The notes under the pieces were generated by a model that searched no databases, had not been told where the DNA came from, and saw nothing but the letters and a program-made list of their open reading frames with translations. Positions 34,849 to 55,492 of a stretch of DNA of 64,000 bases are shown piece by piece. The translations under genes and the position numbers were made by a program. Each line of letters begins with the position of its first letter. The first letter of the stretch is position 1. The stretch is from SAR86 cluster bacterium SAR86E (GTDB lineage: Bacteria; Pseudomonadota; Gammaproteobacteria; Magnimaribacterales; D2472), in assembly GCA_000307935.1 (NCBI GenBank), contig AMWX01000001.1:163388-227387 (forward strand), written 5' to 3'.

Positions 34849-35163
34849 TTATGAAACTGCGTCATTTATGAGCTTTTGAAGCTCTCCTGACTCATGCATT
34901 TCAGAAATAATATCGCAGCCGCCTACTAACTCGCCACTGACAAAAACCTGTGGAAAGGTAGGCCAATCTGAGATATTTGGAAGAGTTTGTCTTATTTCTT
35001 GGTTTTCAAGAATATCTACATATGAGAACTCAGCACCGCAGTCAATCAAGGATTGAATTGTCCTTGCCGAAAAACCACACTTAGGTTCATATGGTGAGCC
35101 TTTCATGTAGATTAAAATTTTATTGTCTTTAATTTGATCTTTAATTTTTTCTTCAATAGACAT
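34849..35163 (-). CDS. grxD: Monothiol glutaredoxin (Grx4 family)
   Basis: 104 aa with a CGFS active site and WPTFPQVFVSGELVGGCDI. Confidence 0.9.
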   Translation of the reverse strand: MSIEEKIKDQIKDNKILIYMKGSPYEPKCGFSARTIQSLIDCGAEFSYVDILENQEIRQTLPNISDWPTFPQVFVSGELVGGCDIISEMHESGELQKLINDAVS

Positions 35164-35918
35164 TAGTCTTTCCTTACAGATTTGATGTATTTTATTATGG
35201 TGTCCTCGAAACCAAATTTCAATGCATCTGTAATAATTGCATGACCAATCGAGACCTCATCAACTGATCCACAATCAATTAAATGCGGAAGATTATCTAA
35301 GTTTAAATCATGCCCAGCATTAATTCCCAGATTTAATTCATAGGCAGCATTGATACAGTCAACAATTTCATTTTTGCATATTTCGAAGTTTGTTAGATCT
35401 TCATCTGCTAAATAGTTTGCAAATGGTCCTGTATAAATTTCAATTCTATCAAAGCCAATTTCTGATGCGTATTTAACCGAGTTGATATTTGCATCTATGA
35501 ATAAGCTTGTTCTGATATTTAAACCTTTTAAAGAATCAAGGAAAAGCTGTAATTGATCGTTATGAAAACCTGGTTGCCATCCATGATCAGAAGTGATTTG
35601 CTTAAGATCATCCGGAACCAGGGTAACTTGATTGGGAGACGCTTGAATACATAGCTCTTTGAAACCAATAAAATCTCCATCAGGCAGGGAGAATGGATTG
35701 CCCTCTAAATTAAATTCAATATCATGATTTTTACAAATTTTTGAAATGGAAATGGCATCTTCGGAAGTTGCATGACGATGATCTGGTCTTGGATGAAGCG
35801 TTAAACCATCAACCCCGAGGTTGATACATTGCTCTGCATAATCAATTAATGAAGGTGTATTATTGCCTCTAGAATTTCTAATTAAAGCAATTTTATTTAA
35901 ATTGACACTTAAATTCAT
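35163..35918 (-). CDS. pdxJ: Pyridoxine 5-prime-phosphate synthase
   Basis: 251 aa with LSVNLNKIALIRNSRG, TLHPRPDHRH and NAGHDL. Confidence 0.9.
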   Translation of the reverse strand: MNLSVNLNKIALIRNSRGNNTPSLIDYAEQCINLGVDGLTLHPRPDHRHATSEDAISISKICKNHDIEFNLEGNPFSLPDGDFIGFKELCIQASPNQVTLVPDDLKQITSDHGWQPGFHNDQLQLFLDSLKGLNIRTSLFIDANINSVKYASEIGFDRIEIYTGPFANYLADEDLTNFEICKNEIVDCINAAYELNLGINAGHDLNLDNLPHLIDCGSVDEVSIGHAIITDALKFGFEDTIIKYIKSVRKD

Positions 35919-35932
35919 AAAAGATTAATCTT

Positions 35933-36361
35933 TTAGTCCCTATCTTTAAAATCCTCAACATTAATCTCAATTGTATTAACATCCTGAGGCTGAGAGATTG
36001 AAGATTCGTCCCAAAAAGCTCTGCCACTAGTAATCTTTCCTCTTTCGTCGACAACAAAGTGGTCTACTATAGATATATCCATTCCTGAATTATCATTTAT
36101 ATTTCTTACTTCCATGACAGCCTTTAAAATTCCTTCATTTGAGCAAACAACAGTTTCGACATTGGTTGGGGTTATTTGCATTCCATCACTGTGACCAAAA
36201 TCCCAAAAAGCACATATCGCTTCAATTCCGTTACATGGATCTGTGCCCACAGGATCCTCAAATACAGCCTCATCATCCCAAAGGCTTTTAAATAAATCTT
36301 TATCATTATTCTTGTAAGCTAAAACATAATTATCCAATGCAGCCTGAACTATCTCTTTCAT
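35933..36361 (-). CDS. Delta5-3-ketosteroid isomerase homologue (NTF2/SnoaL fold)
   Basis: 142 aa, alignable by eye to Comamonas testosteroni KSI. LDNYVLAY covers the Tyr14 position, AVFEDPVGTDP the Asp38 position and IVDHFVV the Asp99 position. Confidence 0.65.
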   Translation of the reverse strand: MKEIVQAALDNYVLAYKNNDKDLFKSLWDDEAVFEDPVGTDPCNGIEAICAFWDFGHSDGMQITPTNVETVVCSNEGILKAVMEVRNINDNSGMDISIVDHFVVDERGKITSGRAFWDESSISQPQDVNTIEINVEDFKDRD

Positions 36362-36855
36362 ACTTGATCCTTTTTTTGAATTCCCTTTTCTTTTAAAAGT
36401 ATTGTTGTAAATTTATCATCAGGACTTATTGGTGATACCTGCTCCCATATACGATCGTATTCTGAGTGTTGAATCAACCATTGATCATTATCTTTAATAT
36501 ATTTATCTTCATAAAGCGCTGTACCTTGGGTAACGCTACCTAAATCAAAATTATAAAAAATATCTTGTAAATACCATTTACCTTGGGCTTCTGCTTCAGA
36601 TAGAATTTCTATTTCAGGATGATGGGCGGTATGCATGGCAGCTGTCTTATTATGAAAGGCGTATTTAAGACTTTCTTTAATGGTTTCTTTTCCTTCAGAT
36701 TCCCATCTGTATGTACCGCCTCGATAATCAATAGTTATGTCTTTTGAAAAAACATTATCTAATAAATCAAAATCAGCCATATCAATCGCTCTAAAATATC
36801 TATGCTTAAGATTTTTAATCTCTTCTATATCAATTAATTTTTGCAATTTATCCAT
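36358..36855 (-). CDS. NTF2-like SnoaL_4-type protein
   Basis: 165 aa. IEEIKNLKHRYFRAIDMADFDLL is typical of the SnoaL_4/BaiE-like dehydratase-type NTF2 family. Confidence 0.6.
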   Translation of the reverse strand: MDKLQKLIDIEEIKNLKHRYFRAIDMADFDLLDNVFSKDITIDYRGGTYRWESEGKETIKESLKYAFHNKTAAMHTAHHPEIEILSEAEAQGKWYLQDIFYNFDLGSVTQGTALYEDKYIKDNDQWLIQHSEYDRIWEQVSPISPDDKFTTILLKEKGIQKKDQV

Positions 36856-36862
36856 GTGCCTT

Positions 36863-37615
36863 CTACCTCAGAAATGCTTGGCCGCCATCAAGCATGATGG
36901 TAGATCCAGTAATATAATTCATGCCATCAGAAAGTATGTGGCAAACAGCTTCACCTATGTCATCTTTGCAGTCACCTACCCTACCTAGTGGAATAGTTTT
37001 AAGAAATTCATTTGCCTCGTCAGGATATTCACTCATCCACCAATCCATGCCAGTTGATTTTGCTAGAGGCATTATGCAATTTACTAAAATATTATCTGGG
37101 CCCCATTCAACTGCAGCTGCCCTCGACAACGATCGAATTGATTCCTTAACGGCCGCATAAGCTCCATACGAACCTGAATCCGGTCTTAATGCTGAGGAGC
37201 TAGCAAGATTAATAATTTTCCCATCTCCTTTAAGATGCGGGTAAGAAGCTTTCATAAAACGGAATGTAGCTAAGGGACCAGAATTCCAACCATCAATAAA
37301 AGATTCATCCGTTACATCTAGAATATTCCCCAGTGGTACTTCTTGAGCATTATTTACTAAAATATTTAAAGAGCTAAATTTTGAAAGACTGATTTTAATT
37401 GAGTTATTAATTGATTCTATGTTCTTAACATCGCACTCAACAGCAAGTGCCGAACCACCCTTTTGATTAATATCATTAGCAACAGCTTCAACTTTTGTAA
37501 AAGTTCTTCCAACCAAGCAAACGTTTGCACCATATGATGCAAGGGCTCTAGCTATTCCCTCTCCAACACCCTGGCCAGAGCCTGTGATTAAAGCTGTTTT
37601 ATTGAAAAAATCCAT
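36863..37615 (-). CDS. Short-chain dehydrogenase/reductase
   Basis: I prefer the ATG at 37615 (MDFFNKTALITGSGQGVGEGIA), 2 nt after the upstream stop. YAAVKES (YxxxK). The track's longer ORF overlaps the upstream gene. Confidence 0.8.
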   Translation of the reverse strand: MDFFNKTALITGSGQGVGEGIARALASYGANVCLVGRTFTKVEAVANDINQKGGSALAVECDVKNIESINNSIKISLSKFSSLNILVNNAQEVPLGNILDVTDESFIDGWNSGPLATFRFMKASYPHLKGDGKIINLASSSALRPDSGSYGAYAAVKESIRSLSRAAAVEWGPDNILVNCIMPLAKSTGMDWWMSEYPDEANEFLKTIPLGRVGDCKDDIGEAVCHILSDGMNYITGSTIMLDGGQAFLR

Positions 37616-37617
37616 AT

Positions 37618-39327
37618 TTAGAAGTTTGAGCCGGTAATGTCTTTTGCTGCCAAGTAACCAAAAGTCATAGCAGGACCCAAGGTTGAGCCAGGACCAGGGT
37701 ATGTCGGTAGCAAAGCAGTAGAGCAATTACCACAAGCATATAGACCCGGTATAGATTTACCTTCTTTATTGAGAACTCTTGCATTTGTATCTATTACTAA
37801 ACCGCCCGCTGTTCCCATTTCACCTGGATATAAAACCATGCAATAAAAGGGGCCTGTCTGAAGAGGAGCAAGACATGGGTTTGGGGTAACGGATGGATCT
37901 CCATAATACCTATCATAGACACTATCACCTCGATGCAGATCAAGATCTTTGCCCGTTGCTGCATAAGAATTTACTTTTGCTTGAGTTGCCAAAAGTCCAT
38001 TCACATCTATTCCAGCAACTTCAGCCAATTCTTCCAATGTTTCGCCCTTTGATAAGAAAGAAGGAGTCCACCATTCTCTGGGAACAGCTGAATCAGGTTG
38101 CATGGATGATTGGAGAAGAGGTCCGCATGGACGATTTTTTCTGAATTTACTATCAAAGACCATATAGCAAGGAGCGCATGGATTTCCCTCTGCATATTTA
38201 TCAAACATATCATTTACAAAACTGACATAATTTTGAGATTCATTAGAAAATCTTTCACCATTCTTATTAACAGTAAAATTTCCTGGCATTGACTTATCCA
38301 CCATTGAAAGCCATCCTTTGTCTTGTCCTGGCACTTTCATAACTGTAGACCACCAACCTGTATCCATTTGATGTGTATCAGCCCCTAGTTTTAAAGCAGC
38401 CTTTAGTGCATCTCCTGTATTGTAAGTATTTGCAGCACTCCACTCTATATTTGTGGGTTTTGGTAAATATTGATCTCTTAAGCCTTGATCCTTTTCAAAT
38501 CCACCAGATGCAAGAATTACTCCTTTGTTAGCCTTAATATTTATTTCAACATTATTTTTAGTAGCTTTAATACCAATGACTGCTCCATTTTCATTAATCA
38601 GATCCGTCATTGCTGTCTCTGTCCATAAATCAACATTCCTATCTTTTAAAGATAAAATTAATCTTGCAACACCTGCATTACCCATAGTAAGACGTCTATC
38701 TTTCCAACCCCATCTCAATCTCATGGGTATATCTAAAATATATTTAGTAAATAGTTTCGCAAATAATGATTTCCATCCAGGCAATGCACCAAGAAGAAGT
38801 TGACCCTCTACCTGTGTAAAGTTCATATTAATTGGGCCCATGGTGAATGCGGTTTGAGGGTGCTGCTCTCTCAATTTTTTAAGATCATCGCCAAGTTCAG
38901 TTCCCTTAATTGGTTCAGGCTCCATTGATCTATTACCTGCTTTACCACCGGGATTATCTGGAAAGTAATCTGGGTAATGTTGCAAGTTTCTATACTTAAC
39001 TTGTGTATTATCATGAAGATAATCAATCATTTTTGGACCTTCAGAAAGGTAAGTTTCAACAAGTTCATCTTTAATTTTACCTTCAGGTGAAACGCTATTT
39101 ATATAATCTCTTGCATCTTGATCAGAATCATCAACATTTTCAGCTTTTGCATACCTGTTATTTGGAATCCATACACCTCCACCTGATGTAGCAGAAGTTC
39201 CACCAAATTGAGTGCTTTTTTCAATTACCAACGTTTTAGCGCCACCGTCGTGACTGCATATAGCAGATGTTAAAGCTCCATTACCAGAACCAATCACAAC
39301 TACATCAAATTCATAATCCCATTTCAT
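37618..39327 (-). CDS. FAD-dependent 3-oxosteroid 1-dehydrogenase (KstD)-like flavoprotein
   Basis: 569 aa. EFDVVVIGSGNGAL...VIEKSTQFGGTSATSGGGVWIPNN closely parallels the N-terminus of actinobacterial KstD as I recall it. C-terminal GLYACGNC. Confidence 0.7.
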   Translation of the reverse strand: MKWDYEFDVVVIGSGNGALTSAICSHDGGAKTLVIEKSTQFGGTSATSGGGVWIPNNRYAKAENVDDSDQDARDYINSVSPEGKIKDELVETYLSEGPKMIDYLHDNTQVKYRNLQHYPDYFPDNPGGKAGNRSMEPEPIKGTELGDDLKKLREQHPQTAFTMGPINMNFTQVEGQLLLGALPGWKSLFAKLFTKYILDIPMRLRWGWKDRRLTMGNAGVARLILSLKDRNVDLWTETAMTDLINENGAVIGIKATKNNVEINIKANKGVILASGGFEKDQGLRDQYLPKPTNIEWSAANTYNTGDALKAALKLGADTHQMDTGWWSTVMKVPGQDKGWLSMVDKSMPGNFTVNKNGERFSNESQNYVSFVNDMFDKYAEGNPCAPCYMVFDSKFRKNRPCGPLLQSSMQPDSAVPREWWTPSFLSKGETLEELAEVAGIDVNGLLATQAKVNSYAATGKDLDLHRGDSVYDRYYGDPSVTPNPCLAPLQTGPFYCMVLYPGEMGTAGGLVIDTNARVLNKEGKSIPGLYACGNCSTALLPTYPGPGSTLGPAMTFGYLAAKDITGSNF

Positions 39328-39500
39328 AATAATTTTTTTAATTTTTCTTTAAATTGTAACTAATTCACTATAACCCATAGGGTATTTTTTAAAAAATATT
39401 CATATATCTTTATTATTATTGACAAAATTTTCCCAGTTGATACCCCCAAATTATTTTCATTAATGTCTATAATCTAATTTTATAAATTTATAATGATTAG

Positions 39501-40631
39501 ATGAAAACTGACATATGTAAAAAACTTGGAATTGAATACCCTATATTTGCTTTTACTCATTGCAGGGATGTTGTTGTTGCAGTTAGTAAAGCTGGTGGAA
39601 TTGGGGTGCTCGGTGCTGTGGGCTACTCACCGGAACAACTGAAGGAAGAGCTTGATTGGATTGATGAGCATATTGGAGAGTATCCATATGGTGTCGATAC
39701 AGTAATTCCTCAAAAATATGAAGGGATGGATGAAAAAGATCCTGAGCAATTATTAGAATCTTTACAAAAAATGATACCTGATGGTCATAGAGAATTTGTT
39801 GAAGAGCTTTTATCAGATAACGGGGTACCCAAAGCCCCAGAAACTAATGGTCCCAAGGGAGGTCTCTTAGGTTGGACAGAGGCAACAGCTGAACCTCAAA
39901 TTGATGAAGCATTAAAACATCCAAACGTAAAATTAATTGCTAACGCCCTAGGTACTCCTCCAGCAGATATGATTAAGAAAATTCAAGATAAAGGAGTTTT
40001 AATTGGAGCCTTATGTGGAAAAATTAAACAAGCCGTTGCTCACAAAGAAGCTGGATTAGATTTTATAATAGCTCAAGGTGGTGAAGGTGGTGGTCATACA
40101 GGTGAAATAGGGAGTATTGTCTTATGGCCTCAAATTATTGATGCAGTAGATGGTTTACCAGTTTTAGCTGCGGGAGGTATTGGAAGCGGCCGTCAAATGG
40201 CTGCAGCAATGTCTACTGGAGCACAAGGTGTTTGGTGTGGCTCATTATGGCTTGCTGTAGAGGAAGCTGCTGCTCAACCAGCTGAAAAAGACTCTTATTT
40301 AAATGCAACCAGTGAGGATACAATTAGAAGCAAGGCTTGGACCGGAAAGCCTGCAAGAATGCTGAAAAATAAATGGACTGAAGCATGGGAAAATCCTGAA
40401 AATCCTGATCCATTACCTATGCCACTTCAAGGAATGATCACTTTTGATGCTATGAGACGCACCTCTATGTATGCTGGCTCTGGAAGCACTCAAGAAGTTT
40501 CGTTTAATGCTGCTGGACAAGTTATCGGGCAAGTGAAACAAATTGAATCTGTAAAAGATGTTATCTATAGAATGATTAATGAGTATCTTGATTCTGTTGA
40601 GCGATTAAACTCTCTGCTACCAAAAGAATAA
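39501..40631 (+). CDS. Nitronate monooxygenase (NMO/2-nitropropane dioxygenase) family FMN enzyme
   Basis: 376 aa with IIAQGGEGGGHTG and LAAGGIGSGRQMAAA. Confidence 0.8.
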   Translation: MKTDICKKLGIEYPIFAFTHCRDVVVAVSKAGGIGVLGAVGYSPEQLKEELDWIDEHIGEYPYGVDTVIPQKYEGMDEKDPEQLLESLQKMIPDGHREFVEELLSDNGVPKAPETNGPKGGLLGWTEATAEPQIDEALKHPNVKLIANALGTPPADMIKKIQDKGVLIGALCGKIKQAVAHKEAGLDFIIAQGGEGGGHTGEIGSIVLWPQIIDAVDGLPVLAAGGIGSGRQMAAAMSTGAQGVWCGSLWLAVEEAAAQPAEKDSYLNATSEDTIRSKAWTGKPARMLKNKWTEAWENPENPDPLPMPLQGMITFDAMRRTSMYAGSGSTQEVSFNAAGQVIGQVKQIESVKDVIYRMINEYLDSVERLNSLLPKE

Positions 40632-42115: not shown

Positions 42116-42994
42116 CTAGCCTTTTTTAAATACATTGATAAAAATAGCCGGTGTTTTATCCAAATAATCCTTGAAATCTGAACGTCTCTCTAGCGAACGT
42201 TTATCCATCATTGAAACTGAAGCAACTGCTATTAAAGCATACATAATTAATGTGCCTATCAACAGCCATGCAAACGATAAATTTGCAGCTAGTGCGAATA
42301 CAAATAGGCTAAACCAAAATAATATTTCTCCAAAATAATTTGGATGACGTGAGTAATACCAAAGACCTGATTTCATAGTTTTAGGCTCAGAAAGATTTTT
42401 TCTAAAATTAAACATTTGTTGATCAGAGATAATTTGGATAATGACTGCTGCTATAGCTAAAAAAGCAGCCAAAATATCTAAACTATTTAATTCGTTACCC
42501 GGATAAGCAAGAGCATAAATCATTGGAAGTAATGCCATATAAACACAGAGCGTTGGAATAAGATGTATTGAACCAAAATCTACCATGAAGTATTGAAATT
42601 TATTATTTGTTTTCCCCTTCATCATAACGTAGCGCCAATCTTCATGTGAAAAACCTTCCCATGACCTCATCCAGTTATAGGTTAATCTTATGGCCCAAAA
42701 CAAGAGACATGCATGCATTAAAAATGCTCTTTGAACATTTCCTGCAGCCGAAATATCCGCCCAACACATGATAGTTAAAACAACTGGAATAACTGACCAG
42801 AAAGCATCATACCAACTAGAGTTTTTAAAAATTACGCTTAAAAAATATATAAAAATGGTAGCCTCAATATGACAGACAAGTACTTTAAATATTAGCGATG
42901 ACTCAGGAAAAAGGCTCCAAGTAAATAACATAGAATAAATGCACGCTATGTAACCAACTAAAATAACTGATAAATGTAAAAGTTTAGTTCTCAT
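42116..42994 (-). CDS. DUF1295 / steroid 5-alpha-reductase-like polytopic membrane protein
   Basis: 292 aa with multiple TM helices and YSRHPNYFGEILFWFS. The start overlaps the fbiC stop by 4 nt. Confidence 0.75.
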   Translation of the reverse strand: MRTKLLHLSVILVGYIACIYSMLFTWSLFPESSLIFKVLVCHIEATIFIYFLSVIFKNSSWYDAFWSVIPVVLTIMCWADISAAGNVQRAFLMHACLLFWAIRLTYNWMRSWEGFSHEDWRYVMMKGKTNNKFQYFMVDFGSIHLIPTLCVYMALLPMIYALAYPGNELNSLDILAAFLAIAAVIIQIISDQQMFNFRKNLSEPKTMKSGLWYYSRHPNYFGEILFWFSLFVFALAANLSFAWLLIGTLIMYALIAVASVSMMDKRSLERRSDFKDYLDKTPAIFINVFKKG

Positions 42995-45405
42995 GTGATA
43001 TTAGTTAATTTTTTAGGTTGATGATAATCATTATTTATTGAGATGAGAGGAATAGACTGCAAGTTAATTAAATCATGAAGATTATTATCCAATGAATCAT
43101 ATAATGTATTTCTCTGTTGTATGTTTAAGTTTAGCTCATTGGCAATTCCTACAACGTCCTCCAGTCGGAGCTCCTGACCAAAAGAAGCACCGGCAGATCT
43201 TGTAATAGATTCATTCATCAAAACTCCTCCAATGTCATTTATCCCAGAAGATAGAAGAAACTTCAGTCCTGGAAGACCCATTTTAACCCATGAGCCTTGA
43301 ATATTATTAATCTGGCCTTGGAACAAAATTCTTGCAACAGAATGAACCAAAATTGTTTCTTTGAATGTAGGTCCAGGTCTAGCATGGCCGCGCCTATATA
43401 TTGGAGCCTCATCTGCAACAAAGGGCAAAGGAACAAATTCTGTTATACCATTAGTTCTCTGTTGAAGGTTTAAAAGCTCCAATAAATGATGAGCAACATG
43501 AGCAGTTCTCTCTACATGACCAAACATCATTGTTGATGTTGTGGGCAATCCCACAGAATGCGCGGTTTCAATAATTTCGATCCATTGCTTGGTGGTAAGT
43601 TTATCGGGGCAAATAATTTCTCTGATATCATCATGTAAAATTTCTGCAGCCGTTCCTGGGAGTGAGTTCAAACCTGCTTTTTTTAACTCTAGAAGAAACT
43701 CTTTAGCAGAGATATTTAAAGTTTTTCTACCGTGATCGATTTCTAAGGGAGAAAAAGCATGAATATGAATTGATGGTGAGCATGATCTAATTGACCTTAC
43801 TATCTCAAGATAAGTTTCACCAGAATATTTTGGATGTATTCCACCTTGTAAACAGACTTCTGTAGCACCTCTTTCAACTGCTTCTTTTGTTCTTCGAATA
43901 ATCTCTTCATGTGAAATATTATACGGCTTGCCTCTGAGGTCATCATGCCCCCTGCCTTTTGAAAAAGCACAAAAATTACATTTAAAAGAGCAGATATTTG
44001 TATAGTTAATATTCCTGTTAACAACAAAAGTGATGTCTGATCCATGCACTTGTGACTTAACATCATTGGCATAATCAGTAACATATTTAAAGTCAGTATC
44101 AGACGTCTCAAGGAGCTGCTGAATATTCTCAATAGATGGGTTGTTTTCAACTTTATTAATGGATTGACGAATACTAGAATTAAATACAGCCTCAGGATAA
44201 GAAGGTATTTTAGTGCTAATTCCTGATCTCCAGAAATCAGAACGAATAAGGGACTTAGAATCAGTTATTTGAAGTAGCTTGGAAGATATTATAGGTGTTG
44301 AAAAACTATCAAGATCAGTAAAATATTTTGGATATAAGGTTGATCTTGATTCTAAAGATTGATTTGAAATCGAAGCTATTTTATTTAACTTTTCTATTTC
44401 AGGCCAAGCTGCCTCTGGGTTTACATAATCCTTGGTAACTGGTGATATTCCGCCAAAATCATTTATTCCAGACTGAGATAGCTGTTTTATATTGTCTGAA
44501 TTTAAATTAGGCGGGACCTGCAGACTAATATCACCAGGCAAGATCAATCTGGACATTGCAATTGTCCACATAAGCTCATCGAATGATGGTTCGCTAGCAT
44601 TTGCCATCAATGTATTGGGCTTTGCTCTAAAGTTCTGCACTATAACTTCTTGGATATGATTGTATGTGCGATGCAATTCGGCTATTTTTTGCAATGACTC
44701 TAAGCGCTCCAACCTTGTTTCACCAATTCCTATCAATATTCCAGTGGTAAAAGGAACCTTTTGTTTTCCAGCTTCCTCTAATGTCTTCATTCTGAAAATA
44801 GGATCTTTGTCTGGAGAGCCGTAATGTGGTTGACCTTTTTCAGTAAGCCGAGATGATAATGACTCAATCATCAAACCCATAGAGCCACTTAGAGGTTTAA
44901 GTTTAGTAATTTCATCAGCAGTTAAACAACCAGGATTTAAATGTGGTATTAAAGATGTCTCATTTAAAACAGCTTCAGCGCATGCAGCTAAATAATCATT
45001 TGTCGTCTTGTAACCATTCTCTAACAACCACTCTCTTGCAGCTTTGTATCTCAATTCTGGCTTATCACCTAGTGTAAATAAGGCTTCATAACAACCGTGA
45101 GCCTCGCCCTCTTTAGCAATTGAAATGACTTTGTCTATTGATAAATAAGGTGATTCAACTTTTTTAGGAGTTTGAGCAAAGGTACAGTAATGACAAACAT
45201 CTCGACATAAAAATGTTAAAGGGATAAACACTTTTGGAGAATAGGTTAATAAGTTTTTGTAATGTATTGTTTTCTTTTCGTAGGAAGCTTTTATCAAAGT
45301 ATCAGATAAACAAATATTAGCTAAGGAACTTAATTCAGAAAATTCAATTGATCCAGAAGCAATTAATCGCTCTAAGGTTTGGTTTGACTGTTCTTGAATT
45401 TTCAA
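42991..45405 (-). CDS. fbiC: FO (7,8-didemethyl-8-hydroxy-5-deazariboflavin) synthase, fused CofG+CofH
   Basis: 804 aa with two radical-SAM motifs, CRDVCHYC in the N half and CSFKCNFC in the C half. Confidence 0.9.
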   Translation of the reverse strand: MKIQEQSNQTLERLIASGSIEFSELSSLANICLSDTLIKASYEKKTIHYKNLLTYSPKVFIPLTFLCRDVCHYCTFAQTPKKVESPYLSIDKVISIAKEGEAHGCYEALFTLGDKPELRYKAAREWLLENGYKTTNDYLAACAEAVLNETSLIPHLNPGCLTADEITKLKPLSGSMGLMIESLSSRLTEKGQPHYGSPDKDPIFRMKTLEEAGKQKVPFTTGILIGIGETRLERLESLQKIAELHRTYNHIQEVIVQNFRAKPNTLMANASEPSFDELMWTIAMSRLILPGDISLQVPPNLNSDNIKQLSQSGINDFGGISPVTKDYVNPEAAWPEIEKLNKIASISNQSLESRSTLYPKYFTDLDSFSTPIISSKLLQITDSKSLIRSDFWRSGISTKIPSYPEAVFNSSIRQSINKVENNPSIENIQQLLETSDTDFKYVTDYANDVKSQVHGSDITFVVNRNINYTNICSFKCNFCAFSKGRGHDDLRGKPYNISHEEIIRRTKEAVERGATEVCLQGGIHPKYSGETYLEIVRSIRSCSPSIHIHAFSPLEIDHGRKTLNISAKEFLLELKKAGLNSLPGTAAEILHDDIREIICPDKLTTKQWIEIIETAHSVGLPTTSTMMFGHVERTAHVAHHLLELLNLQQRTNGITEFVPLPFVADEAPIYRRGHARPGPTFKETILVHSVARILFQGQINNIQGSWVKMGLPGLKFLLSSGINDIGGVLMNESITRSAGASFGQELRLEDVVGIANELNLNIQQRNTLYDSLDNNLHDLINLQSIPLISINNDYHQPKKLTNIT

Positions 45406-45409
45406 CGAT

Positions 45410-45985
45410 CTAACTGTTTATGTATTTAATTAGTTTGAAGTAATCTTCCTCGGAGTCAAGGTCATCTTGAAGGCTTTCAATTGAAATATCCTGATAATTT
45501 AATCTATTATTTTTAAATTCATGCATAAAAAGATTGTAACTATTGAGTCCAAATTTTAGATCAAAGGAAATTGCTGAATTAAACATCAAACAATTTGTAC
45601 CTTGCATCGAAAGATCTGAAATAATACTAACTTTTTTAATGTCAAAGGAATGAGCTAACTCATGGAGATCCGGTTCATTTATTTTAGGGAGATCTGCATG
45701 CATGATTAAAATAATGTCATTGGTTGTTTGCGCATAGATAGCTTCATTTAGACCATCGTTTAATGATGAGTTTGTGAAATATGAAGTTGAATAGTCTAGT
45801 TGTAAGCTCTTGTCATTTGTCACAACTGTTATTGAATTACAGATTTTAGAGTTGTGCAAAGTATCAATAGTTTTTTTTGCCATTGAGGCAGCTAAAACTT
45901 CTCTTTCAGGTGAGGTAATAATATTTGCTAATCGATTCTTTGAAGATGAAAACTTTTTAATCGGTATAAATGCAGAGACATTCAT
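45410..45985 (-). CDS. cofC: F420 biosynthesis guanylyltransferase (CofC/FbiD)
   Basis: 191 aa with N-terminal AFIPIKKFSSSKNRL (family IPxK....K.RL). Positioned between cofD and fbiC. Confidence 0.75.
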   Translation of the reverse strand: MNVSAFIPIKKFSSSKNRLANIITSPEREVLAASMAKKTIDTLHNSKICNSITVVTNDKSLQLDYSTSYFTNSSLNDGLNEAIYAQTTNDIILIMHADLPKINEPDLHELAHSFDIKKVSIISDLSMQGTNCLMFNSAISFDLKFGLNSYNLFMHEFKNNRLNYQDISIESLQDDLDSEEDYFKLIKYINS

Positions 45986-46915
45986 TTATTTTGATTCAAG
46001 CTCATCAATGATTCTCTTGGCAAGTGCATTTTTTTTATTAACATTGTTCATAATTAAATCAGCAATATGAACCTCATAACCTAGATCATTTAATTCATTA
46101 GACTCACTTACATCAGAAGAATCTATAAAAATTCTTTGTGAGTAATTATTATAAAATTTAGCAATAGTTTTTACACTTACTTCTTGGCCGAGTTCTTGCA
46201 TCATTTTTGCTGTTGGTCCTTTTAATGACTGAGCATTAACAATTGGACTAATAGTTGTAACATTATGCGAATAATCATGTAAATAATTTTTTAGTTTGGG
46301 TAACTGGAGCATTGGATTAATGCTTACATAGGGATTTGATGGGCATATGATGATTTCATCATAAGTTGACAAATCAAGGTCTTTGTTAAAATCTGCCTTA
46401 TCAAGACCCTTGAAAACAAAATCAGTTACAGGTGGTTCGCACTTCAATTTAACAAAATATTCTTGAAATGAAAGCAACCTATTTTTTGTTTGTATATAAG
46501 TTTCAACAGATTGATTGCTCATTGGAAAAATAAATTTTGGGAGATTGAATGACTCACATAAATTATGTGTTGCATCTGTAAGAGATTGTCCAGAATTAAT
46601 TAAATGTGTTCTTTGAATATGTGTTGCTAAGTCTTTGTCTCCAAGTTGAAACCATGTTTCTCCCTCCATATCAGACAAAGCTGAAAGCATATTCCATGTC
46701 TCATCTTTTCTTCCCCAGCCCTTTGATGTATCGGATTCACTGGCAAGGGTATACATCACAGTATCAAGATCAGGACAGATTCTTAAACCAAGATGCGTGA
46801 AATCATCTCCAGTATTAACTGCAATAGTTAAGTTATCTGAATCAATTGAATTTTTAAATCCCAAGGCAAGCTTGGCTCCCCCAACACCCCCACATAACAA
46901 CAAATAATTCTTCAT
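45986..46915 (-). CDS. cofD: 2-phospho-L-lactate (or analogue) transferase (CofD/FbiA)
   Basis: 309 aa with LCGGVGGAKLALG and an ICPSNP motif. Confidence 0.85.
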   Translation of the reverse strand: MKNYLLLCGGVGGAKLALGFKNSIDSDNLTIAVNTGDDFTHLGLRICPDLDTVMYTLASESDTSKGWGRKDETWNMLSALSDMEGETWFQLGDKDLATHIQRTHLINSGQSLTDATHNLCESFNLPKFIFPMSNQSVETYIQTKNRLLSFQEYFVKLKCEPPVTDFVFKGLDKADFNKDLDLSTYDEIIICPSNPYVSINPMLQLPKLKNYLHDYSHNVTTISPIVNAQSLKGPTAKMMQELGQEVSVKTIAKFYNNYSQRIFIDSSDVSESNELNDLGYEVHIADLIMNNVNKKNALAKRIIDELESK

Positions 46916-47745
46916 CTAAATAAGTCCTCTTCCTCACTTCTAATTAAAGATCGAGAGTCGCTAAGATTATTTTGTTTAAATTGATAGCCTTTGATTAATA
47001 CAACAGGTTTTTTTTGTGCAGCCTGGCCCATCAATAATGATGAGGCTGCTGCTAATTCGTCAGCGATGCCTATTTGAGTTACTTTTAACTCATTATTATA
47101 AAGGTCTTTTTTACCTCGCTCATCTAAAAGGCATTCAATGTTATGACTCCCTATCGTAAAACCTACTATTCCATTTCTAAAAGGTCTGCCCATAGTATCG
47201 GTGATAATTATAGATATGTTTTTTTGAAAGTATTGAGATATGGATTCTGAAATCTTCTTAGCTGATTCGTCAGGATTTTCTGGTAACAACAAGACAATAT
47301 TCTTGAGTTGATCAATGTTAGACCGATCAATTCCTGCGTTTGCATGAATAAATCCCAATTTATGCTCAACAATTAATACTCCCATTCTATAGCGGACCAC
47401 CTTTTGTGATTCATTGAGTATTGCTTGAATAAACTTTGGATCTTTATCAATTTTTGTAGATAAGGTCATGGCCTCTTCTGAGGGGTCCAAGTGTGAGATG
47501 TCGAGATATCTATTTTCTGATTTAGAAATAATTTTTTGAGCTATTGCAATGACATCTCCATCATCAATTGATATTGATTCAGAGGTTATAGCCTTGATGA
47601 TTTCTTTGGATACATCTTGTCCTGGCTGAATAAGCGGAAGTGTCTCTAGAGCAATGAGGTTAATGGAACTGATAATACTTCTCTTGTTAGTGGCCTGTGA
47701 TCTTAATGCCTGAATGTGCAAGTGAGTGTTTTTTATTGATCGCAA
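46912..47745 (-). CDS. cofE: F420-0:gamma-glutamyl ligase, single-domain CofE
   Basis: GDVIAIAQKIISKSE and HANAGIDRSN. At most 277 aa, with no C-terminal nitroreductase-like domain. The start is uncertain: only TTG codons at 47745 or 47721 are available, and both overlap fno. Confidence 0.85.
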   Translation of the reverse strand: MRSIKNTHLHIQALRSQATNKRSIISSINLIALETLPLIQPGQDVSKEIIKAITSESISIDDGDVIAIAQKIISKSENRYLDISHLDPSEEAMTLSTKIDKDPKFIQAILNESQKVVRYRMGVLIVEHKLGFIHANAGIDRSNIDQLKNIVLLLPENPDESAKKISESISQYFQKNISIIITDTMGRPFRNGIVGFTIGSHNIECLLDERGKKDLYNNELKVTQIGIADELAAASSLLMGQAAQKKPVVLIKGYQFKQNNLSDSRSLIRSEEEDLFR

Positions 47746-48319
47746 TTAATATTGACGTTAGAGCTTCAGCAGCAACTGAATTGCATAATGGTCCAGCATG
47801 CCAGCCAGTCAGACCAGCATCAGCTGCTAACTCAATTACGGTATTTCTAGCATCAAGAAAATCTCCAGCAACCAAAACATCACAATCAATCTCAGCATCG
47901 GTCTGCAGTAATTCAGCTGAAATATTTTGAAAAGCAGATACTACAGTAGTTTGTTCACCCAAAATAGATTGAGCATTTAATGCCGCAGAACCTATTTCAG
48001 GCAATTGAACCCTCATAACCTTTGGAGGCATCAGTGGAACAGTTGCATCAATCATTATCTTATTTTGCAAACCATCATCAATACTTATTAAAGTTGATTC
48101 TTGATGCGCAAATGGCACAGTTAAGCATGCGATTTCACAGATTTTAGCAGCATCAATATTCAACATTCCAGATGAACTTTCCAAGCCTAATTGCACAGCA
48201 ATTTCTTGAGCCTTAGGTAAATCACGGCTGCCAATAAGCACGTCATGTCCAGCCTTAATCCATCTTGAAGCCAACCCTTTACCCAAGGATCCTGTCCCGC
48301 CTAGAATAGCTATTTTCAT
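47687..48319 (-). CDS. fno: NADPH-dependent F420 reductase (Fno/NpdG family)
   Basis: 210 aa with MKIAILGGTGSLGKGLASRWIKAGHDVLIGSRD. GGAG RBS upstream. Confidence 0.8.
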   Translation of the reverse strand: MKIAILGGTGSLGKGLASRWIKAGHDVLIGSRDLPKAQEIAVQLGLESSSGMLNIDAAKICEIACLTVPFAHQESTLISIDDGLQNKIMIDATVPLMPPKVMRVQLPEIGSAALNAQSILGEQTTVVSAFQNISAELLQTDAEIDCDVLVAGDFLDARNTVIELAADAGLTGWHAGPLCNSVAAEALTSILIAINKKHSLAHSGIKITGH

Positions 48320-49818: not shown

Positions 49819-51345
49819 TTATCCAAATAATTTTCTGACCAAGCGATTGCCCCAAAATATTTTTAAAGCTCCTTTTAGTTGCTCAAATGATTTGTCTGTA
49901 TAGGGATAAGCTGATGCTGACTTTTTGCCTATGATAATTGGCATTGGATGGGCATATGCTAACAAGCCCTCTTTTCCATTCACTACCCCTAGGCCACTTT
50001 CTTTGACTCCACCGAATGGAACTTCATTAACTCCATAGCTCATTGCCATATCATTTACAGAGCAGGCACCTGTTTCAATTGCTTTGGCTAATCTCTGACC
50101 TTTTTTTAAATCTTTGGTCCAAACATTTCCATTCAATCCATAATGAGATTGGTTGGCTAACATTAATGCTTCCTCTTCTGATTGAACTTTCATAATTGAG
50201 ATAATTGGCCCGAAGGTTTCATCTTTCATGATCTTCATCTCATGAGTAACTTCTACAAGAACTGTTGGTTCAAAATATAAGCCTTCAAAATTTGGATTTC
50301 TTTTCCCTCCAACCAATACCTTTGCACCTTTAGCGACTGCATCATTCACATGATCTTCGATGATTTCAACTTGCTTATCCCAAAAAGTAGGGCCAACATC
50401 ACCTTTACAATCATTGGATTGAATGAGAGATTGAGTTATTGAAACTGCCTCTGCAACAAACTCATCATAAACATCCTCCATGACATAAATTCTTTCAGTG
50501 CCACAGCAATACTGACCTGCATTCATACATGAGCCCACAACAGCACCACTAGCAGCATCTTTGATGTCTGCATCAGAACAAACAATCATGGCATCTTTGC
50601 CACCCAATTCAAGACTATAAGGAATCAGCATTTCTCCACATTTTGCTGCAATCTTTTTACCTGTAGCAACGCTACCTGTAAAAGAAACCTTATCTGGACC
50701 CTGGTCAATTAACTCCGCACCTGTCTCCCCATCTCCTATAACGGTCTGCACAAGGTGCTCTGGGGCTTCAGCTAACGCAAAAATTTCCTGCACCAATGCT
50801 CCAGACATAGGAGTAACTTCAGATGGTTTCACCACCACGCTATTTCCACAAAGAACAGCTTGAATGACTGGATTAATAGACAGTATGAATGGACCATTCC
50901 ATGGAGTAATAACTGCTACCACACCTCTTGGCTTGTATGTGATTATTGTTTTCTTAAGAAACTGCATAGGTCCATGCATCTTTATTTTTTTATCTGCTAA
51001 CCACTTTTGAGCTCTCTTTGCATAGAAGACCAAAGAATCAACAGCTGAAAATACTTCCATAGACATAGCTTCTTGCTCAGGTTTGCCAGTCTCTCTCATG
51101 ACAACATCCATGATTCTGTCTTGCTGCTGAATAACTACATCAGCAACCCTATGCATTAACTCAACTCTTTCTTTCAAAGTTGTTTTCTTCCACTCACTTT
51201 GCGCAACTTTGGCTTGGGTCATTATCGATGAAATCTCTTCTGATGAAGTGCATTCATAAGTATCGATATGAGAGAGATCGACCGGGCTTTTTAAAGTTAA
51301 TAGTTTTTTGCCGCTCTCTGAATGAGAGATAGAAAAAATAGCCAT
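49819..51345 (-). CDS. Aldehyde dehydrogenase
   Basis: 508 aa with ELGGKDA and the catalytic-Cys region NAGQYCCGTERIYV. Confidence 0.9.
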   Translation of the reverse strand: MAIFSISHSESGKKLLTLKSPVDLSHIDTYECTSSEEISSIMTQAKVAQSEWKKTTLKERVELMHRVADVVIQQQDRIMDVVMRETGKPEQEAMSMEVFSAVDSLVFYAKRAQKWLADKKIKMHGPMQFLKKTIITYKPRGVVAVITPWNGPFILSINPVIQAVLCGNSVVVKPSEVTPMSGALVQEIFALAEAPEHLVQTVIGDGETGAELIDQGPDKVSFTGSVATGKKIAAKCGEMLIPYSLELGGKDAMIVCSDADIKDAASGAVVGSCMNAGQYCCGTERIYVMEDVYDEFVAEAVSITQSLIQSNDCKGDVGPTFWDKQVEIIEDHVNDAVAKGAKVLVGGKRNPNFEGLYFEPTVLVEVTHEMKIMKDETFGPIISIMKVQSEEEALMLANQSHYGLNGNVWTKDLKKGQRLAKAIETGACSVNDMAMSYGVNEVPFGGVKESGLGVVNGKEGLLAYAHPMPIIIGKKSASAYPYTDKSFEQLKGALKIFWGNRLVRKLFG

Positions 51346-51347
51346 TG

Positions 51348-52418
51348 TTATAACTCCTTAAGTTTAGCTTCAAGCATTGGCGTTACATGATTGTTAATAT
51401 GTGCATTCATACCCATAGGCATAATCTCATAATGCTCTAGTTTACGAACAACTTTAACCATAATTACGGTAAATTTGTATAACGCTAAAATGTAATAGTA
51501 ATCAAAATCATCTGCGCTAAACCCTGTAAGCGCTTCCCATTTAGCAATAGTTGCCACGGGCCCAGGAAAACCACTCAACCTCTCTACATGGACGCCTTTT
51601 GAGTTGCAATCATCAATTGCAATTCCCCATGCAAGATCCATGCAAGGATCGCCGAGAGCTGCCATTTCCCAATCTAAAACAGCTGAGACTTGGCCATCGG
51701 GGTCATACATAATGTTTGCACATCTGCAATCGCCCCAAAGTATAGAGGCTTGAGTTGGTTTTGGTTTATTGGTTTTTAGCCACTCACGCGCTTGATCTGC
51801 AACGGGATGAGCTTCACCGTCCATAGCCCAATCATGAAAGTTAAAATAATAATTTAGCTCTTGATCAAGATAATCTTCAGAAAGTTCTGGTCTATTCAGA
51901 AATTTAAAATCTTCATTCGCAATATCAACTTGATGAATTTTAGCCATTTGCTCAACCCAACCCCACCAAATCCTTTCTCTAACCTCTTCTGAGGAATCAG
52001 CAACCCACCCTTCTTGATGAAACGGAGGATTATCAGATGGAGCATCACCACTTGCCATTTCCATAACATAAAACGAAGTTCCAAAAACTTCATCACTAGG
52101 CTCATACCAAAGGACTTTTGGAACTTTGATATCATGATCAGCTAGTTTTTGCATGATCAAAAATTGCTTATGAATATCATAGTCAGGAAATACAAAAAAA
52201 CCTTCAGGATAGAATCGCAGCACCATACCGGTCTTAATTCTTGTATCTTCTAATTTATATGAGACATTGAAACTTAATGTTTCATTTGAAAAGCCTGTAT
52301 TTTCAGGGCCGCCTAATAACTCCACATCTAGATCAGTGGCTCCATCTAGTTTTGTCTCAATCCAGTTACTAAAAATTACCTTAGTTGCATCTAAATCTCT
52401 TTCTTGTGGCTTTGGCAT
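51348..52418 (-). CDS. Phosphotransferase (APH/ACAD10-N-like kinase fold)
   Basis: 356 aa with WGDCRCANIMYD and VLDWEMAALGDP. Confidence 0.75.
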   Translation of the reverse strand: MPKPQERDLDATKVIFSNWIETKLDGATDLDVELLGGPENTGFSNETLSFNVSYKLEDTRIKTGMVLRFYPEGFFVFPDYDIHKQFLIMQKLADHDIKVPKVLWYEPSDEVFGTSFYVMEMASGDAPSDNPPFHQEGWVADSSEEVRERIWWGWVEQMAKIHQVDIANEDFKFLNRPELSEDYLDQELNYYFNFHDWAMDGEAHPVADQAREWLKTNKPKPTQASILWGDCRCANIMYDPDGQVSAVLDWEMAALGDPCMDLAWGIAIDDCNSKGVHVERLSGFPGPVATIAKWEALTGFSADDFDYYYILALYKFTVIMVKVVRKLEHYEIMPMGMNAHINNHVTPMLEAKLKEL

Positions 52419-52485: not shown

Positions 52486-53568
52486 ATGGCTGATTTGTTT
52501 AAAGAAAAGTGGGATGCATTTTGCGAAAACCTTAAAGAAGTTGGATCAATTATCGAATCAGAATCCTCGCTTAGTGAAACAGATCAAGTAGAGGGATACA
52601 GATATTTATTGAGGCTGATGCGTTTGTCATTAGAGATGAATATGGAGCATTCAAATCCCTCATCACCTTCTTTTTATAATCTATCTCATGAAACAGCAAA
52701 AATAGGTGCAGACAACCCAGATAATATTTACTTAAATGCAAACATACAAGGAAATCAAACCTATGAAGTTTATGGCAATATTGGTGAAGTTGAGTATTTG
52801 AGTTTTGGAATAAAAGAAAATAGATATAGCAAAGATGGAACCATGGTCTCTCTTGGGGAGATTGATATCAAAGATATGAATGTGGATGATTCGGGAGATT
52901 TTATTTTGCATATAGGCGGCGCAACTAATTCCAAAAATTTCTTGCCACTTCCTAAAAATGCAAATATGTTAATTGTTCGACAAACTTATACAAATAGAGT
53001 TACTCAAGCTCATGCGAAAGTAAATATAAAAACTACAAGCTCGCAGGCAATGCCTGAACTTTTAACATCTGAAAAACTGGAAACTCATCTAAATCAATCT
53101 TTAGCTTTTGTAAGTGGAACTGCATCAACATTCTTAAAATGGGTGCATGAATTTAAAGAAAATCATAAAAATCAATTGCCATTAGGCGATCAGTCATTTT
53201 TTCAAGCTGCAGGTGGAGATCCAAAAATCTGCTATCTTCATGGTTATTATGAATTTAGTAAAAATGAATATATGGAAATTACAACTGATATACCTGATTG
53301 TGAGTATTGGAATTTTCAATTAGAAAATTATTGGATGGAATCACTGGATTATCGACACTACCCTATTCATATAAACGAATCCTCAGCTGTTCTTAATCTA
53401 GATAAGTCTATTACCATTAATGTTAGTCATTTACCTGTAAATTTAAAAAATAATCTGATAACTGAAGGTCGTAATAATGGGGCTATGCTGTTGAGATGGA
53501 TCGGAGCAACCACTCATCCAATCCCCAAAGTATTAATAAAAACACTTGATTCCATGGAGATGAGCTAA
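52486..53568 (+). CDS. Hypothetical protein (possibly DUF1214-like)
   Basis: 360 aa. First gene of a seven-gene plus-strand operon. The family assignment is from weak recollection only. Confidence 0.35.
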   Translation: MADLFKEKWDAFCENLKEVGSIIESESSLSETDQVEGYRYLLRLMRLSLEMNMEHSNPSSPSFYNLSHETAKIGADNPDNIYLNANIQGNQTYEVYGNIGEVEYLSFGIKENRYSKDGTMVSLGEIDIKDMNVDDSGDFILHIGGATNSKNFLPLPKNANMLIVRQTYTNRVTQAHAKVNIKTTSSQAMPELLTSEKLETHLNQSLAFVSGTASTFLKWVHEFKENHKNQLPLGDQSFFQAAGGDPKICYLHGYYEFSKNEYMEITTDIPDCEYWNFQLENYWMESLDYRHYPIHINESSAVLNLDKSITINVSHLPVNLKNNLITEGRNNGAMLLRWIGATTHPIPKVLIKTLDSMEMS

Positions 53569-54715: not shown

Positions 54716-55492
54716 ATGTTATTAAAAGATAAAGTAGTAATTGTTTCGGGAATTGGGCCTGGATTAGGTCAAGAGCTTGCTTATGGCGCAGCTAGAGAAG
54801 GTGCGAAAATTGCTATAGCTGCTAGATCTACTGATCTATTAAATAAGCTCAAAGATGAGATCGGAAAAAAATCTGAAGTTATTGCTATTCCTTGTGATAT
54901 TACAAAACCAGAGGATTGTAAAAATTTGGTTGATGAGACAGTTAAAAAGTATGGAAAACTTGATGGTTTAATTAACAGCGCTTATCGTGCAGGCGACTTT
55001 AAGGAAATTGAAGATTCTGATTTTTCCGATTGGCAAGAAACGATGAATACAAATTTTTTTGGAACGATGAATTTAACGATGGCTGCCGTTAAAGAAATGG
55101 CTCCAAACAAAGATGGTGCAATCGTCATGATTAATAGTTTAATAACAAAAAAACCGCTACCAACTCAAGGAGGTTATGCTGCCTCAAAAGGTGCGCTAGC
55201 CACTGCAACAAAAATTCTTGCAAAAGAGCTGGGTCCAAAAGGCATCAGAGTGAACTCAGTCTACATGGGTTGGATGTGGGGTCCACCAGTTGAAATGTAT
55301 GTAAATTTTACCGCTGAATCTATGGGTGTTGAGCCTAAAGATGTAATAGATGGGGTTACCAAAGATATCCCATTGGGAATTATTCCAGACGATAGTGATT
55401 GTGCGAATGCTGCATTATTTCTGATTTCGGATCTTGCTAGAGTCATTACTGGTGCTAATTTAGATGTAAATGGTGGAGAATTTATGTCTTAG
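54716..55492 (+). CDS. Short-chain dehydrogenase/reductase
   Basis: 258 aa with VSGIGPGLGQELA and YAASKGA. Confidence 0.8.
   Translation: MLLKDKVVIVSGIGPGLGQELAYGAAREGAKIAIAARSTDLLNKLKDEIGKKSEVIAIPCDITKPEDCKNLVDETVKKYGKLDGLINSAYRAGDFKEIEDSDFSDWQETMNTNFFGTMNLTMAAVKEMAPNKDGAIVMINSLITKKPLPTQGGYAASKGALATATKILAKELGPKGIRVNSVYMGWMWGPPVEMYVNFTAESMGVEPKDVIDGVTKDIPLGIIPDDSDCANAALFLISDLARVITGANLDVNGGEFMS

Follow-up and report, generated by a model that had tools for sequence, protein, structure and literature searches.

A conserved four-gene operon of SAR86 that probably encodes the opening module of steroid-nucleus catabolism

Introduction

Entry into the breakdown of the steroid nucleus canonically proceeds through a short-chain dehydrogenase/reductase (SDR) of the 3-beta-hydroxysteroid dehydrogenase type, a Δ5-3-ketosteroid isomerase (KSI, EC 5.3.3.1) and a 3-ketosteroid Δ1-dehydrogenase (KstD, EC 1.3.99.4). 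Here we describe a four-gene operon of SAR86 cluster bacterium SAR86E, from a streamlined SAR86 lineage (Magnimaribacterales), that probably encodes an opening module of this kind. The operon lies in a 64,000-nt stretch of contig AMWX01000001.1 (positions 163,388 to 227,387; ∼35 % G+C), referred to throughout as the window, and an open reading frame (ORF) listing of that stretch was used for all coordinates.

Among the closest described enzymes, AcmB of Sterolibacterium denitrificans, a cholest-4-en-3-one/3-ketosteroid Δ1-dehydrogenase, belongs to a KstD subgroup whose defining trait is a membrane-associated domain; its catalytic base is Y363 (Y318 in KstD1 of Rhodococcus erythropolis), with Y118/Y119, Y536/Y487 and G540/G491 (AcmB/KstD1) as partners (PMC9736390). 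The canonical KSIs, such as those of Comamonas testosteroni and Pseudomonas putida, are proteins of 125–131 aa with an NTF2-like α+β cone fold; in the C. testosteroni enzyme D38 is the general base and Y14 and D99 line the oxyanion hole. BaiE (Clostridium scindens and relatives) and Hsh2 (Sphingobium sp. Chol11) are 7α-hydroxysteroid dehydratases yielding 3-oxo-Δ4,6 steroids, a variant that has been described mainly in Sphingomonadaceae; BaiE is part of an anaerobic, reductive pathway and works on coenzyme A (CoA) esters. Asp35 of BaiE reportedly has an active-site role, which is attributed to Bhowmik et al. 2016. Y30 and H83 of the same enzyme have been placed at the 3-oxo group and the C6/C7 hydroxyl (PMC12065433). 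For Novosphingobium aromaticivorans F199 and S. herbicidovorans MH, the formation of Δ4,6 intermediates from 7α-hydroxy bile salts has been shown experimentally, and the Δ4,6-forming reaction has been assigned to the BaiE homologue Hsh2, homologues of which also occur in marine metagenomes, the organisms being unnamed (PMC12175502).

SAR86 accounts for several percent of surface-ocean bacteria, and sterols represent a large, poorly tracked share of algal lipid carbon. SAR86E was listed among the predicted steroid degraders by Bergstrand et al. 2016 (PMC4810484). Freel et al. 2024 report KSI (K01822), kstD (K05898), kshA, hsaA, hsaC, tesI and fadD3 only in the Suzuki-family genera G01–G03, which have genomes of 1.3–1.5 Mb with 34–40 % G+C and include SAR86E, in G03 (PMC11582366). 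Both predictions concern the same organism group and the same KSI and kstD genes as the present work, and both consist of gene counts only; the operon itself, and its fixed position between pdxJ and the coenzyme F420 genes, are not described in the passages of Freel et al. considered here (PMC11582366). Because KSI and kstD are reported only from G01–G03, SAR86E belongs to G03 and the gene names given in IMG match, we infer that the operon in the window belongs to this group. We found no entry for baiE or hsh2 in the SAR86 supplementary tables, and no literature linking SAR86 to a dehydratase of this type.

Results and Discussion

Organization of the operon

The four genes run on the minus strand from 39327 down to 35933, with a gene for an NMO-family protein diverging from them on the plus strand. 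In order of transcription they encode a KstD-like flavoprotein (37618..39327, 569 aa), an SDR (36863..37615, 250 aa), a SnoaL_4 protein (36358..36855, 165 aa) and a KSI-like protein (35933..36361, 142 aa), the first two junctions being spaced by 2 and 7 nt, respectively, and the genes at the third overlapping by 4 nt. The ORF listing thus confirmed the coordinates of a run, with spacings of 7 nt or less, that an earlier note made from the sequence had described as an operon. For the SDR, the longest ORF opens at a TTG at 37726, and the ATG at 37615 (MDFFNKT) yields 250 aa, which is the length called for its orthologue. Conservation was followed in a scan that used one genome per species and compared eleven proteins of the neighbourhood (loci L012–L048).

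Enzymes encoded by the operon

The flavoprotein begins with MKWDYEFDVVVIGSGNG...GGTSATSGGGVWIPNN, including the N-terminal GxGxxG motif of flavoproteins (VVVIGSGNGAL), and carries the Pfam domain FAD_binding_2 (PF00890) over residues 8–550 (E=4e-73). Its top match in the PDB was AcmB (7p18), with an alignment that spans residues 7–567 and shows 42 % identity (E=4e-138), and the best two NCBIfam models were the 3-oxosteroid 1-dehydrogenase equivalogs NF005882 and NF009478. KstD1 (4c3x) matched with E=3e-78, in two pieces that skip query residues 158–215. This segment is covered by the alignment with AcmB, is shared by AcmB and the window protein and is lacking in KstD1, and it corresponds to the AcmB-type membrane-associated domain. 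Residues Y118, Y121, Y367, Y543 and G547 align with Y115, Y118, Y363, Y536 and G540 of AcmB and are invariant across 35 loci, such that the catalytic base, both helper tyrosines and the glycine are all kept. The strong resemblance to KstD that had been noted for the N-terminus was therefore borne out over the whole protein, which, as judged from its sequence, is a Δ1-KstD homologue of the AcmB type. It shares with AcmB the FAD_binding_2 architecture and end-to-end similarity, and differs from it in its host, an aerobic, streamlined marine gammaproteobacterium. Orthologues are called 3-oxosteroid 1-dehydrogenase in IMG, where naming is based on KEGG Orthology, and the NCBI names given to the orthologues of the window proteins are NTF2-family and FAD-binding proteins. 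Two other types of ketosteroid dehydrogenase were considered and rejected: the Δ4-(5α) type, as 4at0 matched with only E=9e-21 and thus scored far below AcmB and KstD1, and the 5β-Δ4 type, as such enzymes are Old Yellow Enzymes and so belong to another family.

The KSI-like protein contains the motifs LDNYV, FEDPVG and VDHF, in which the earlier note had recognized residues at all three catalytic positions of KSI. Pfam places it in SnoaL_2, and in a phmmer search of the PDB the best 52 matches were all ketosteroid isomerases (E = 2e-9 to 5e-6). The alignment places Y12, D36 and D100 opposite Y14, D38 and D99 of C. testosteroni KSI, and all three are unchanged in 38/38 related loci; D36, within FEDPVG, is furthermore invariant in these 38 loci plus 17 database homologues. 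Position 100 is occupied by Glu in one database homologue (P0109, 46 % identity). An AlphaFold2 model built from a 17-sequence alignment reached a predicted local distance difference test (pLDDT) score of 93.3, with lower confidence in a C-terminal tail of ∼20 residues, and the best 50 Foldseek matches of this model in the PDB were all KSIs, from three genera, with target template modelling (TM) scores of 0.80–0.88. The fold is thus common to the window protein and the KSIs of C. testosteroni and P. putida (TM 0.85–0.88, root-mean-square deviation ∼2.2 Å), at 23–28 % identity and with the base Asp and the Tyr/Asp oxyanion hole aligned. The check by modelling that the earlier note had proposed therefore succeeded as regards the fold, the model superposing on KSI crystal structures, and the match of the triad comes from the sequence alignment rather than from model coordinates. 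The same note had named fumarate-reductase-like flavoproteins and limonene-epoxide-hydrolase-like proteins as non-steroid clades into which the best hits might fall; for both proteins these hits were steroid enzymes instead, with resemblances well outside what chance would give. By sequence and fold, the 142-aa protein is a true Δ5-3-ketosteroid isomerase homologue. It differs from the canonical enzymes in its greater length, owing to the C-terminal tail, and in sharing an operon with KstD, SDR and dehydratase homologues.

Orthologues of the 142-aa protein are called steroid delta-isomerase in IMG. An exact-sequence lookup returned no match for it, and its relatives in the databases are proteins of SAR86 cluster bacteria and of marine metagenomes. 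No steroid genes were seen around three distant homologues outside SAR86 (L005–L007). The nearest plasmid-borne homologue (42 %) is found in Sphingobium TomTYG65, a strain from a group studied for the degradation of steroidal alkaloids, where it lies 6 kb from a KstD gene (41 %).

The third assignable enzyme is the SnoaL_4 protein (Pfam SnoaL_4, E=8e-26), for which three BaiE entries were the sole significant sequence relatives in the PDB (E = 4e-22 to 4e-21). Its AlphaFold2 model (pLDDT 90) gave the same result, in that the best four Foldseek matches were BaiE (35–36 % identity, TM ∼0.8, E=2e-14) and the next families, scytalone dehydratase and LinA, followed with E=4e-9, ∼1e5 worse. Y20, D25 and H75 align with BaiE Y30, D35 and H83, and are invariant in 39 loci, including those of sphingomonads. 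The closest relatives in a plasmid collection belong to Sphingobium and Novosphingobium (43–47 %), the group of Hsh2, and are linked to steroid genes. One of them, on plasmid pNL2 of N. aromaticivorans (43 % identity, E=2e-42), adjoins genes for CoA-transferase A/B (ipdAB-type), an NMO-family protein, enoyl-CoA hydratases, an HsaC-like VOC dioxygenase and acyl-CoA dehydrogenases, a neighbourhood that is a steroid-nucleus cluster. Feller et al. defined Hsh2 homologues by an identity of ≥35 %, an E-value of ≤1e-25 and a reciprocal best match. F199 and S. herbicidovorans MH each have a single homologue borne on a plasmid, to which the window protein shows 43–44 % identity with E-values of 2e-42 to 6e-43, and it is by way of these two genes that orthology to Hsh2 may be proposed. 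The 165-aa protein is thus a 7α-hydroxysteroid dehydratase homologue of the BaiE/Hsh2 type and a likely 7-hydroxysteroid dehydratase. Since it is a 12β-hydroxyl that SteC, a related enzyme, removes (PMC13101464), the position of the hydroxyl attacked is not certain. The designation of the gene set as A-ring-type, given to it previously, holds for the ring-A enzymes and is too narrow in that a BaiE/Hsh2-type protein would extend the action of the set to ring B. This assignment, of a protein that the earlier note had left unnamed, is the main addition to that note and a modest one to the literature.

Near another relative of the SnoaL_4 protein, 47 % identical to it, an EthD-domain gene stands directly upstream (L050, 9287..10528). 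The EthD domain is the fold of the 7β-dehydratase Hsh3 (PMC12175502), and the two genes look like a pair of 7β- and 7α-dehydratases.

For the SDR, Pfam matches were adh_short and adh_short_C2 (the latter with E=8e-44), and the sequence holds the classical motifs TGSGQGVG, NNAQ and YAAVK together with the catalytic Ser, Tyr and Lys. All of its NCBIfam matches (230/230) fell below cut-off, its best PDB match was an unnamed SDR (7wbc), and 7α-hydroxysteroid dehydrogenases appeared only at E ∼1e-25, among many FabG-type matches. Its genomic relatives are more informative: a 51 % homologue on pNL2 lies immediately upstream of WP_011906908.1, the F199 homologue of Hsh3, the gene for which has been described near hydroxysteroid dehydrogenase genes (PMC12175502), and in Burkholderia arboris only 1.6 kb separate the gene of a 53 % homologue from that of a SnoaL_4 homologue. 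By analogy with these neighbourhoods, the SDR is probably a hydroxysteroid dehydrogenase. On pNL2 (L052, 7802..10525) a sulfotransferase gene, the SDR gene and the gene for the EthD protein WP_011906908.1 stand in a row, and a sulfotransferase is also encoded in the window, at 53568..54707; these sulfotransferases might point to substrates in the form of sulfated steroids or bile alcohols.

The divergent NMO-family protein

The divergent gene (39501..40631, plus strand) encodes a protein of 376 aa with the Pfam domain NMO (E=1e-47), a flavin mononucleotide (FMN) TIM-barrel family. It had been labelled IpdC-like, and this label did not survive. IpdC belongs to the same family; compared directly with the NMO protein of pNL2, which is flanked by CoA-transferase A/B and hydratase genes and so stands in an ipdAB context, the window protein showed only 27 % identity with 65 gap positions (20 %), and the closer relatives of the latter (45–59 %) form a different NMO subfamily. 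It scores as well against FabK, which provided its best PDB matches (E=1e-32) and whose NCBIfam model gave 154 bits (cut-off 453). Neither ipdAB nor echA20 was found near it within the window, and the IpdC-like label was rejected. Three annotated relatives (45–51 %; L053, L054 and L055) adjoin genes for CoA-ligase, thiolase/DUF35 and enoyl-CoA hydratase, and these neighbourhoods suggest a link to acyl-CoA metabolism, without pointing to a specific function. That the NMO gene is highly conserved and always holds the same divergent position speaks for a tie to the operon, a link that is one of position only. On a Tsukamurella plasmid (L055, 7001..10325) the NMO homologue adjoins two F420-dependent oxidoreductases, a pairing that echoes the SAR86 arrangement, in which the NMO gene is paired with genes of F420 biosynthesis.

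Conservation and transcriptional context

Genes for the KstD-like protein were present at 77–99 % identity in 37 loci from species-level genomes, nearly all of them titled as SAR86 (G+C content 0.31–0.40), the best match (99 %) coming from the single-cell genome AG-313-O08. Every locus that is long enough has the same order, namely bacterioferritin, glutaredoxin, PdxJ, KSI-like protein, SnoaL_4 protein, SDR and KstD-like protein, followed by the divergent NMO protein, M20 peptidase, DUF1295 protein and FbiC. The NMO gene keeps its divergent position in all loci reaching it, at 78–99 % identity, and among the eleven proteins the KstD-like and NMO proteins show the highest conservation. At L047, the most distant locus, identities to the window were 79 % for the KstD-like protein, 78 % for NMO, 67 % for the KSI-like protein, 60 % for both the SDR and the SnoaL_4 protein and 46 % for PdxJ, from which it follows that the KstD-like and NMO proteins are under stronger constraint than PdxJ. 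The core-genome status of the operon in this lineage is a further modest addition to what was known.

The KSI-like gene had been taken for the last gene of the same-strand run, and in this respect the earlier description needs to be amended. The pdxJ gene starts 14 nt past its stop codon and is overlapped by 1 nt by a glutaredoxin gene (grx), both genes continuing on the minus strand (34849..35918; Pfam PdxJ and Glutaredoxin), and a promoter/terminator scan found no terminator-like site between the KSI-like gene, pdxJ and grx. The two are probably co-transcribed housekeeping genes that stand outside the enzyme set. At the other end, the intergenic stretch that separates the KstD-like gene from the NMO gene (39328..39500, 173 bp) contains promoter-like matches at 39353-39326 (minus strand) and 39388-39416 (plus strand). 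As such sites were no commoner than in shuffled sequence, the operon boundaries rest on spacing only and this region is a likely promoter location. An Rfam scan of the window returned one tRNA and nothing else.

Proposed pathway and alternative readings

We consider it probable that the four genes form the opening module of steroid-nucleus catabolism in this streamlined SAR86 lineage. Homology, fold, catalytic residues and conserved linkage are the basis of the enzyme identities, and the order of the steps, the target of the SDR and the substrates are proposals. In the proposed scheme the SDR would oxidize a ring hydroxyl, most likely the 3-hydroxyl, to a ketone, after which isomerization of the Δ5 double bond by the KSI homologue would yield a conjugated 3-oxo-Δ4 steroid. 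If a 7α-hydroxyl is present, the BaiE/Hsh2-like enzyme would eliminate water to give a 3-oxo-Δ4,6-diene, and the FAD-dependent KstD of AcmB type would then carry out the Δ1-desaturation. Enzymes whose genes lie elsewhere would take up the resulting dienone or trienone for 9α-hydroxylation and ring opening. Candidate substrates would be the Δ5-sterols of phytoplankton, their 7-hydroxylated oxidation products, and the bile salts or bile alcohols of fish.

Support for this scheme comes from three assignments to steroid enzymes in one operon, made independently for the KstD, KSI and BaiE/Hsh2-like proteins, and by analogy from the relatives of three of the four proteins (SnoaL_4 protein, SDR and KSI-like protein), which stand beside steroid genes in known degraders of steroids or bile salts. 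Further support is provided by the synteny of the block in 37 SAR86 species-level genomes, by the KshA-type Rieske gene of the window and by the published predictions. The suggestion in the earlier note that this lineage may transform steroids is in agreement with published SAR86 genomics (PMC4810484, PMC11582366). Sequence, fold and context give the steroid reading good support; it was for the most part already known, and is given here in more anatomical detail.

Several observations weigh against it nevertheless. The KstD-like protein reached 528.4 and 520.6 bits with the two NCBIfam KstD models, for which the cut-offs are 788 and 789, and models of non-steroid cyclic-ketone desaturases (ChcC1 and ChcC2) matched it with 363 and 315 bits. 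In the KSI-like protein, W53 replaces the auxiliary Tyr55 of KSI (Tyr57 in P. putida) in 38/38 loci, and Phe30 of the C. testosteroni enzyme is likewise Trp; KSI mutants with a Y55F exchange keep substantial activity, Tyr55 being auxiliary and not defining. By sequence the SDR is generic, with no curated model or solved hydroxysteroid dehydrogenase singling it out. No hsa, ipdAB or acyl-CoA dehydrogenase genes are present in the 64-kb window, and the rest of the pathway is only presumed to be present in the SAR86E genome. The run-on into pdxJ and grx suggests constitutive rather than substrate-induced expression. Finally, we know of no SAR86 protein for which enzyme activity has been established.

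Part of this evidence could be accommodated by the same chemistry acting on non-steroid alicyclic or terpenoid compounds, such as breakdown products of carotenoids and terpenoids or carboxyl-rich alicyclic matter, an explanation that we regard as unlikely. It would account for the scores of the KstD-like protein below the curated cut-offs, for the match of this protein to models of 4-oxocyclohexanecarboxylate desaturases and of uncharacterized paralogue families (315–473 bits) and to cyclohexanone-dehydrogenase-type PDB entries (8am8, E=5e-42), and for the generic SDR; moreover, a full steroid pathway would be a large investment for genomes of ∼1.3 Mb. It is opposed by the finding that all three assignable enzymes independently point to steroids and have nearest solved relatives that bind steroids, by the AcmB-type extra domain of the KstD-like protein and by the homologues outside SAR86 that adjoin steroid-pathway genes. 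In addition, downstream seco-steroid genes are listed for the same genera by Freel et al. (PMC11582366).

The absence from the window of the later pathway genes raises a separate issue, which is whether the module modifies steroids without mineralizing them, be it for detoxification or in a partial oxidation with release of dienones or trienones. A survey bore out the statement of the earlier note that meta-cleavage, CoA-transferase and acyl-CoA dehydrogenase genes are missing from the window; its conclusion, that the pathway is at best partial, applies to the window and not beyond, as a KshA-type oxygenase is encoded 17 kb from the operon and Freel et al. list downstream genes. We think it quite unlikely that the module stops at modification. 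The window is indeed without ring-cleavage and methylhexahydroindanedione propionate (HIP) genes, the operon sits among housekeeping genes and is apparently joined to pdxJ and grx, and bile-salt degraders are known for a transient release of such intermediates; hsaD is also near-absent in the table of Freel et al., at 0, 0.2 and 0 per genome (PMC11582366). On the other side, kshA, hsaA, hsaC, tesI and fadD3 are reported for the same genera (PMC11582366), a KshA-type gene is present in the window and a test of the full pathway by multiple genes was positive for SAR86E (PMC4810484).

Very unlikely, in our view, is that the 142-aa protein, instead of being an isomerase, is a further dehydratase of steroids or some other enzyme with the NTF2 fold, comparable to BaiI, with the operon paralleling baiA/baiCD/baiE/baiI: NTF2-fold enzymes with Tyr and Asp do catalyse many reactions, Pfam assigns the protein to SnoaL_2 only, Tyr55 of KSI is replaced, a BaiE-like gene adjoins and BaiI has been described as a KSI-like putative 7β-dehydratase (PMC12175502), but the full KSI triad is kept in all 38 loci, with Glu at the third position in a single distant database homologue, the best fold and sequence matches (50 and 52, respectively) are all KSI, and it is the neighbouring SnoaL_4 protein, not this one, that is matched by scytalone dehydratase, LinA and BaiE.

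Implications of the module

Returning to the steroid module, a more specific version of it can be offered tentatively, and we hold it to be rather unlikely as a whole: that a globally abundant, genome-streamlined SAR86 sublineage keeps a ring-A/B steroid module with a 7α-dehydratase as a core, probably constitutive trait, directed at 7-hydroxylated sterols or fish bile salts. If true, this would place in the open ocean a Δ4,6-type route so far known mainly from soil and freshwater Sphingomonadaceae, with 7-hydroxylated sterols from the photo- and autoxidation of phytoplankton sterols, or alternatively the bile salts of fish, as natural substrates, and the lineage would be a specific sink for oxidized sterols in surface seawater. 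More generally, the present analysis ties a published prediction made from gene counts to a defined, conserved operon and to three enzymes with clear assays, and with the 7-hydroxysteroid dehydratase homologue the choice of candidate substrates is reduced to 7-oxygenated sterols or bile salts. No new kind of system is revealed by it.

Other genes in the window

Approximately 17 kb from the operon, a gene on the plus strand (56471..57466) encodes a Rieske protein of 331 aa with a KshA C-terminal domain. Its best solved relative is the 3-ketosteroid 9α-hydroxylase KshA (E=7e-45), compared with which it is ∼55 residues shorter. It is accompanied by genes for an SDR (54716..55492), an amidohydrolase_2 protein (55593..56459) and a 147-aa protein without Pfam match (57463..57906).

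On the far side of the NMO gene, a DUF1295 membrane protein resembling steroid 5α-reductase (42116..42994, minus strand) is encoded between the M20 peptidase and FbiC, and is conserved in almost every SAR86 locus of sufficient length; a gene of the DUF1295 type is listed as ‘det2’ by Freel et al. (PMC11582366). Next to it lies a complete-looking block for the biosynthesis of coenzyme F420 (42991..48319, minus strand), comprising FbiC, CofC, CofD and CofE together with an F420-dependent NADP oxidoreductase, and in the SAR86 loci that extend far enough the FbiC end of this block flanks the steroid operon. F420 is not a cofactor that is commonly linked to marine Gammaproteobacteria.

A flavin monooxygenase of the FMO/Baeyer–Villiger type (60167..61615, minus strand) and a pair of genes for an aldehyde dehydrogenase and an APH-family kinase (49819..52418, minus strand) are further oxidative, xenobiotic-type genes of the window. 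The remainder of its first half is made up of housekeeping genes (his, fab and RNase E genes). Within the his operon, one ORF of 624 aa (6978..8852, plus strand) contains both HisD (histidinol dehydrogenase) and HisB (imidazoleglycerol-phosphate dehydratase) domains and looks like a gene fusion.

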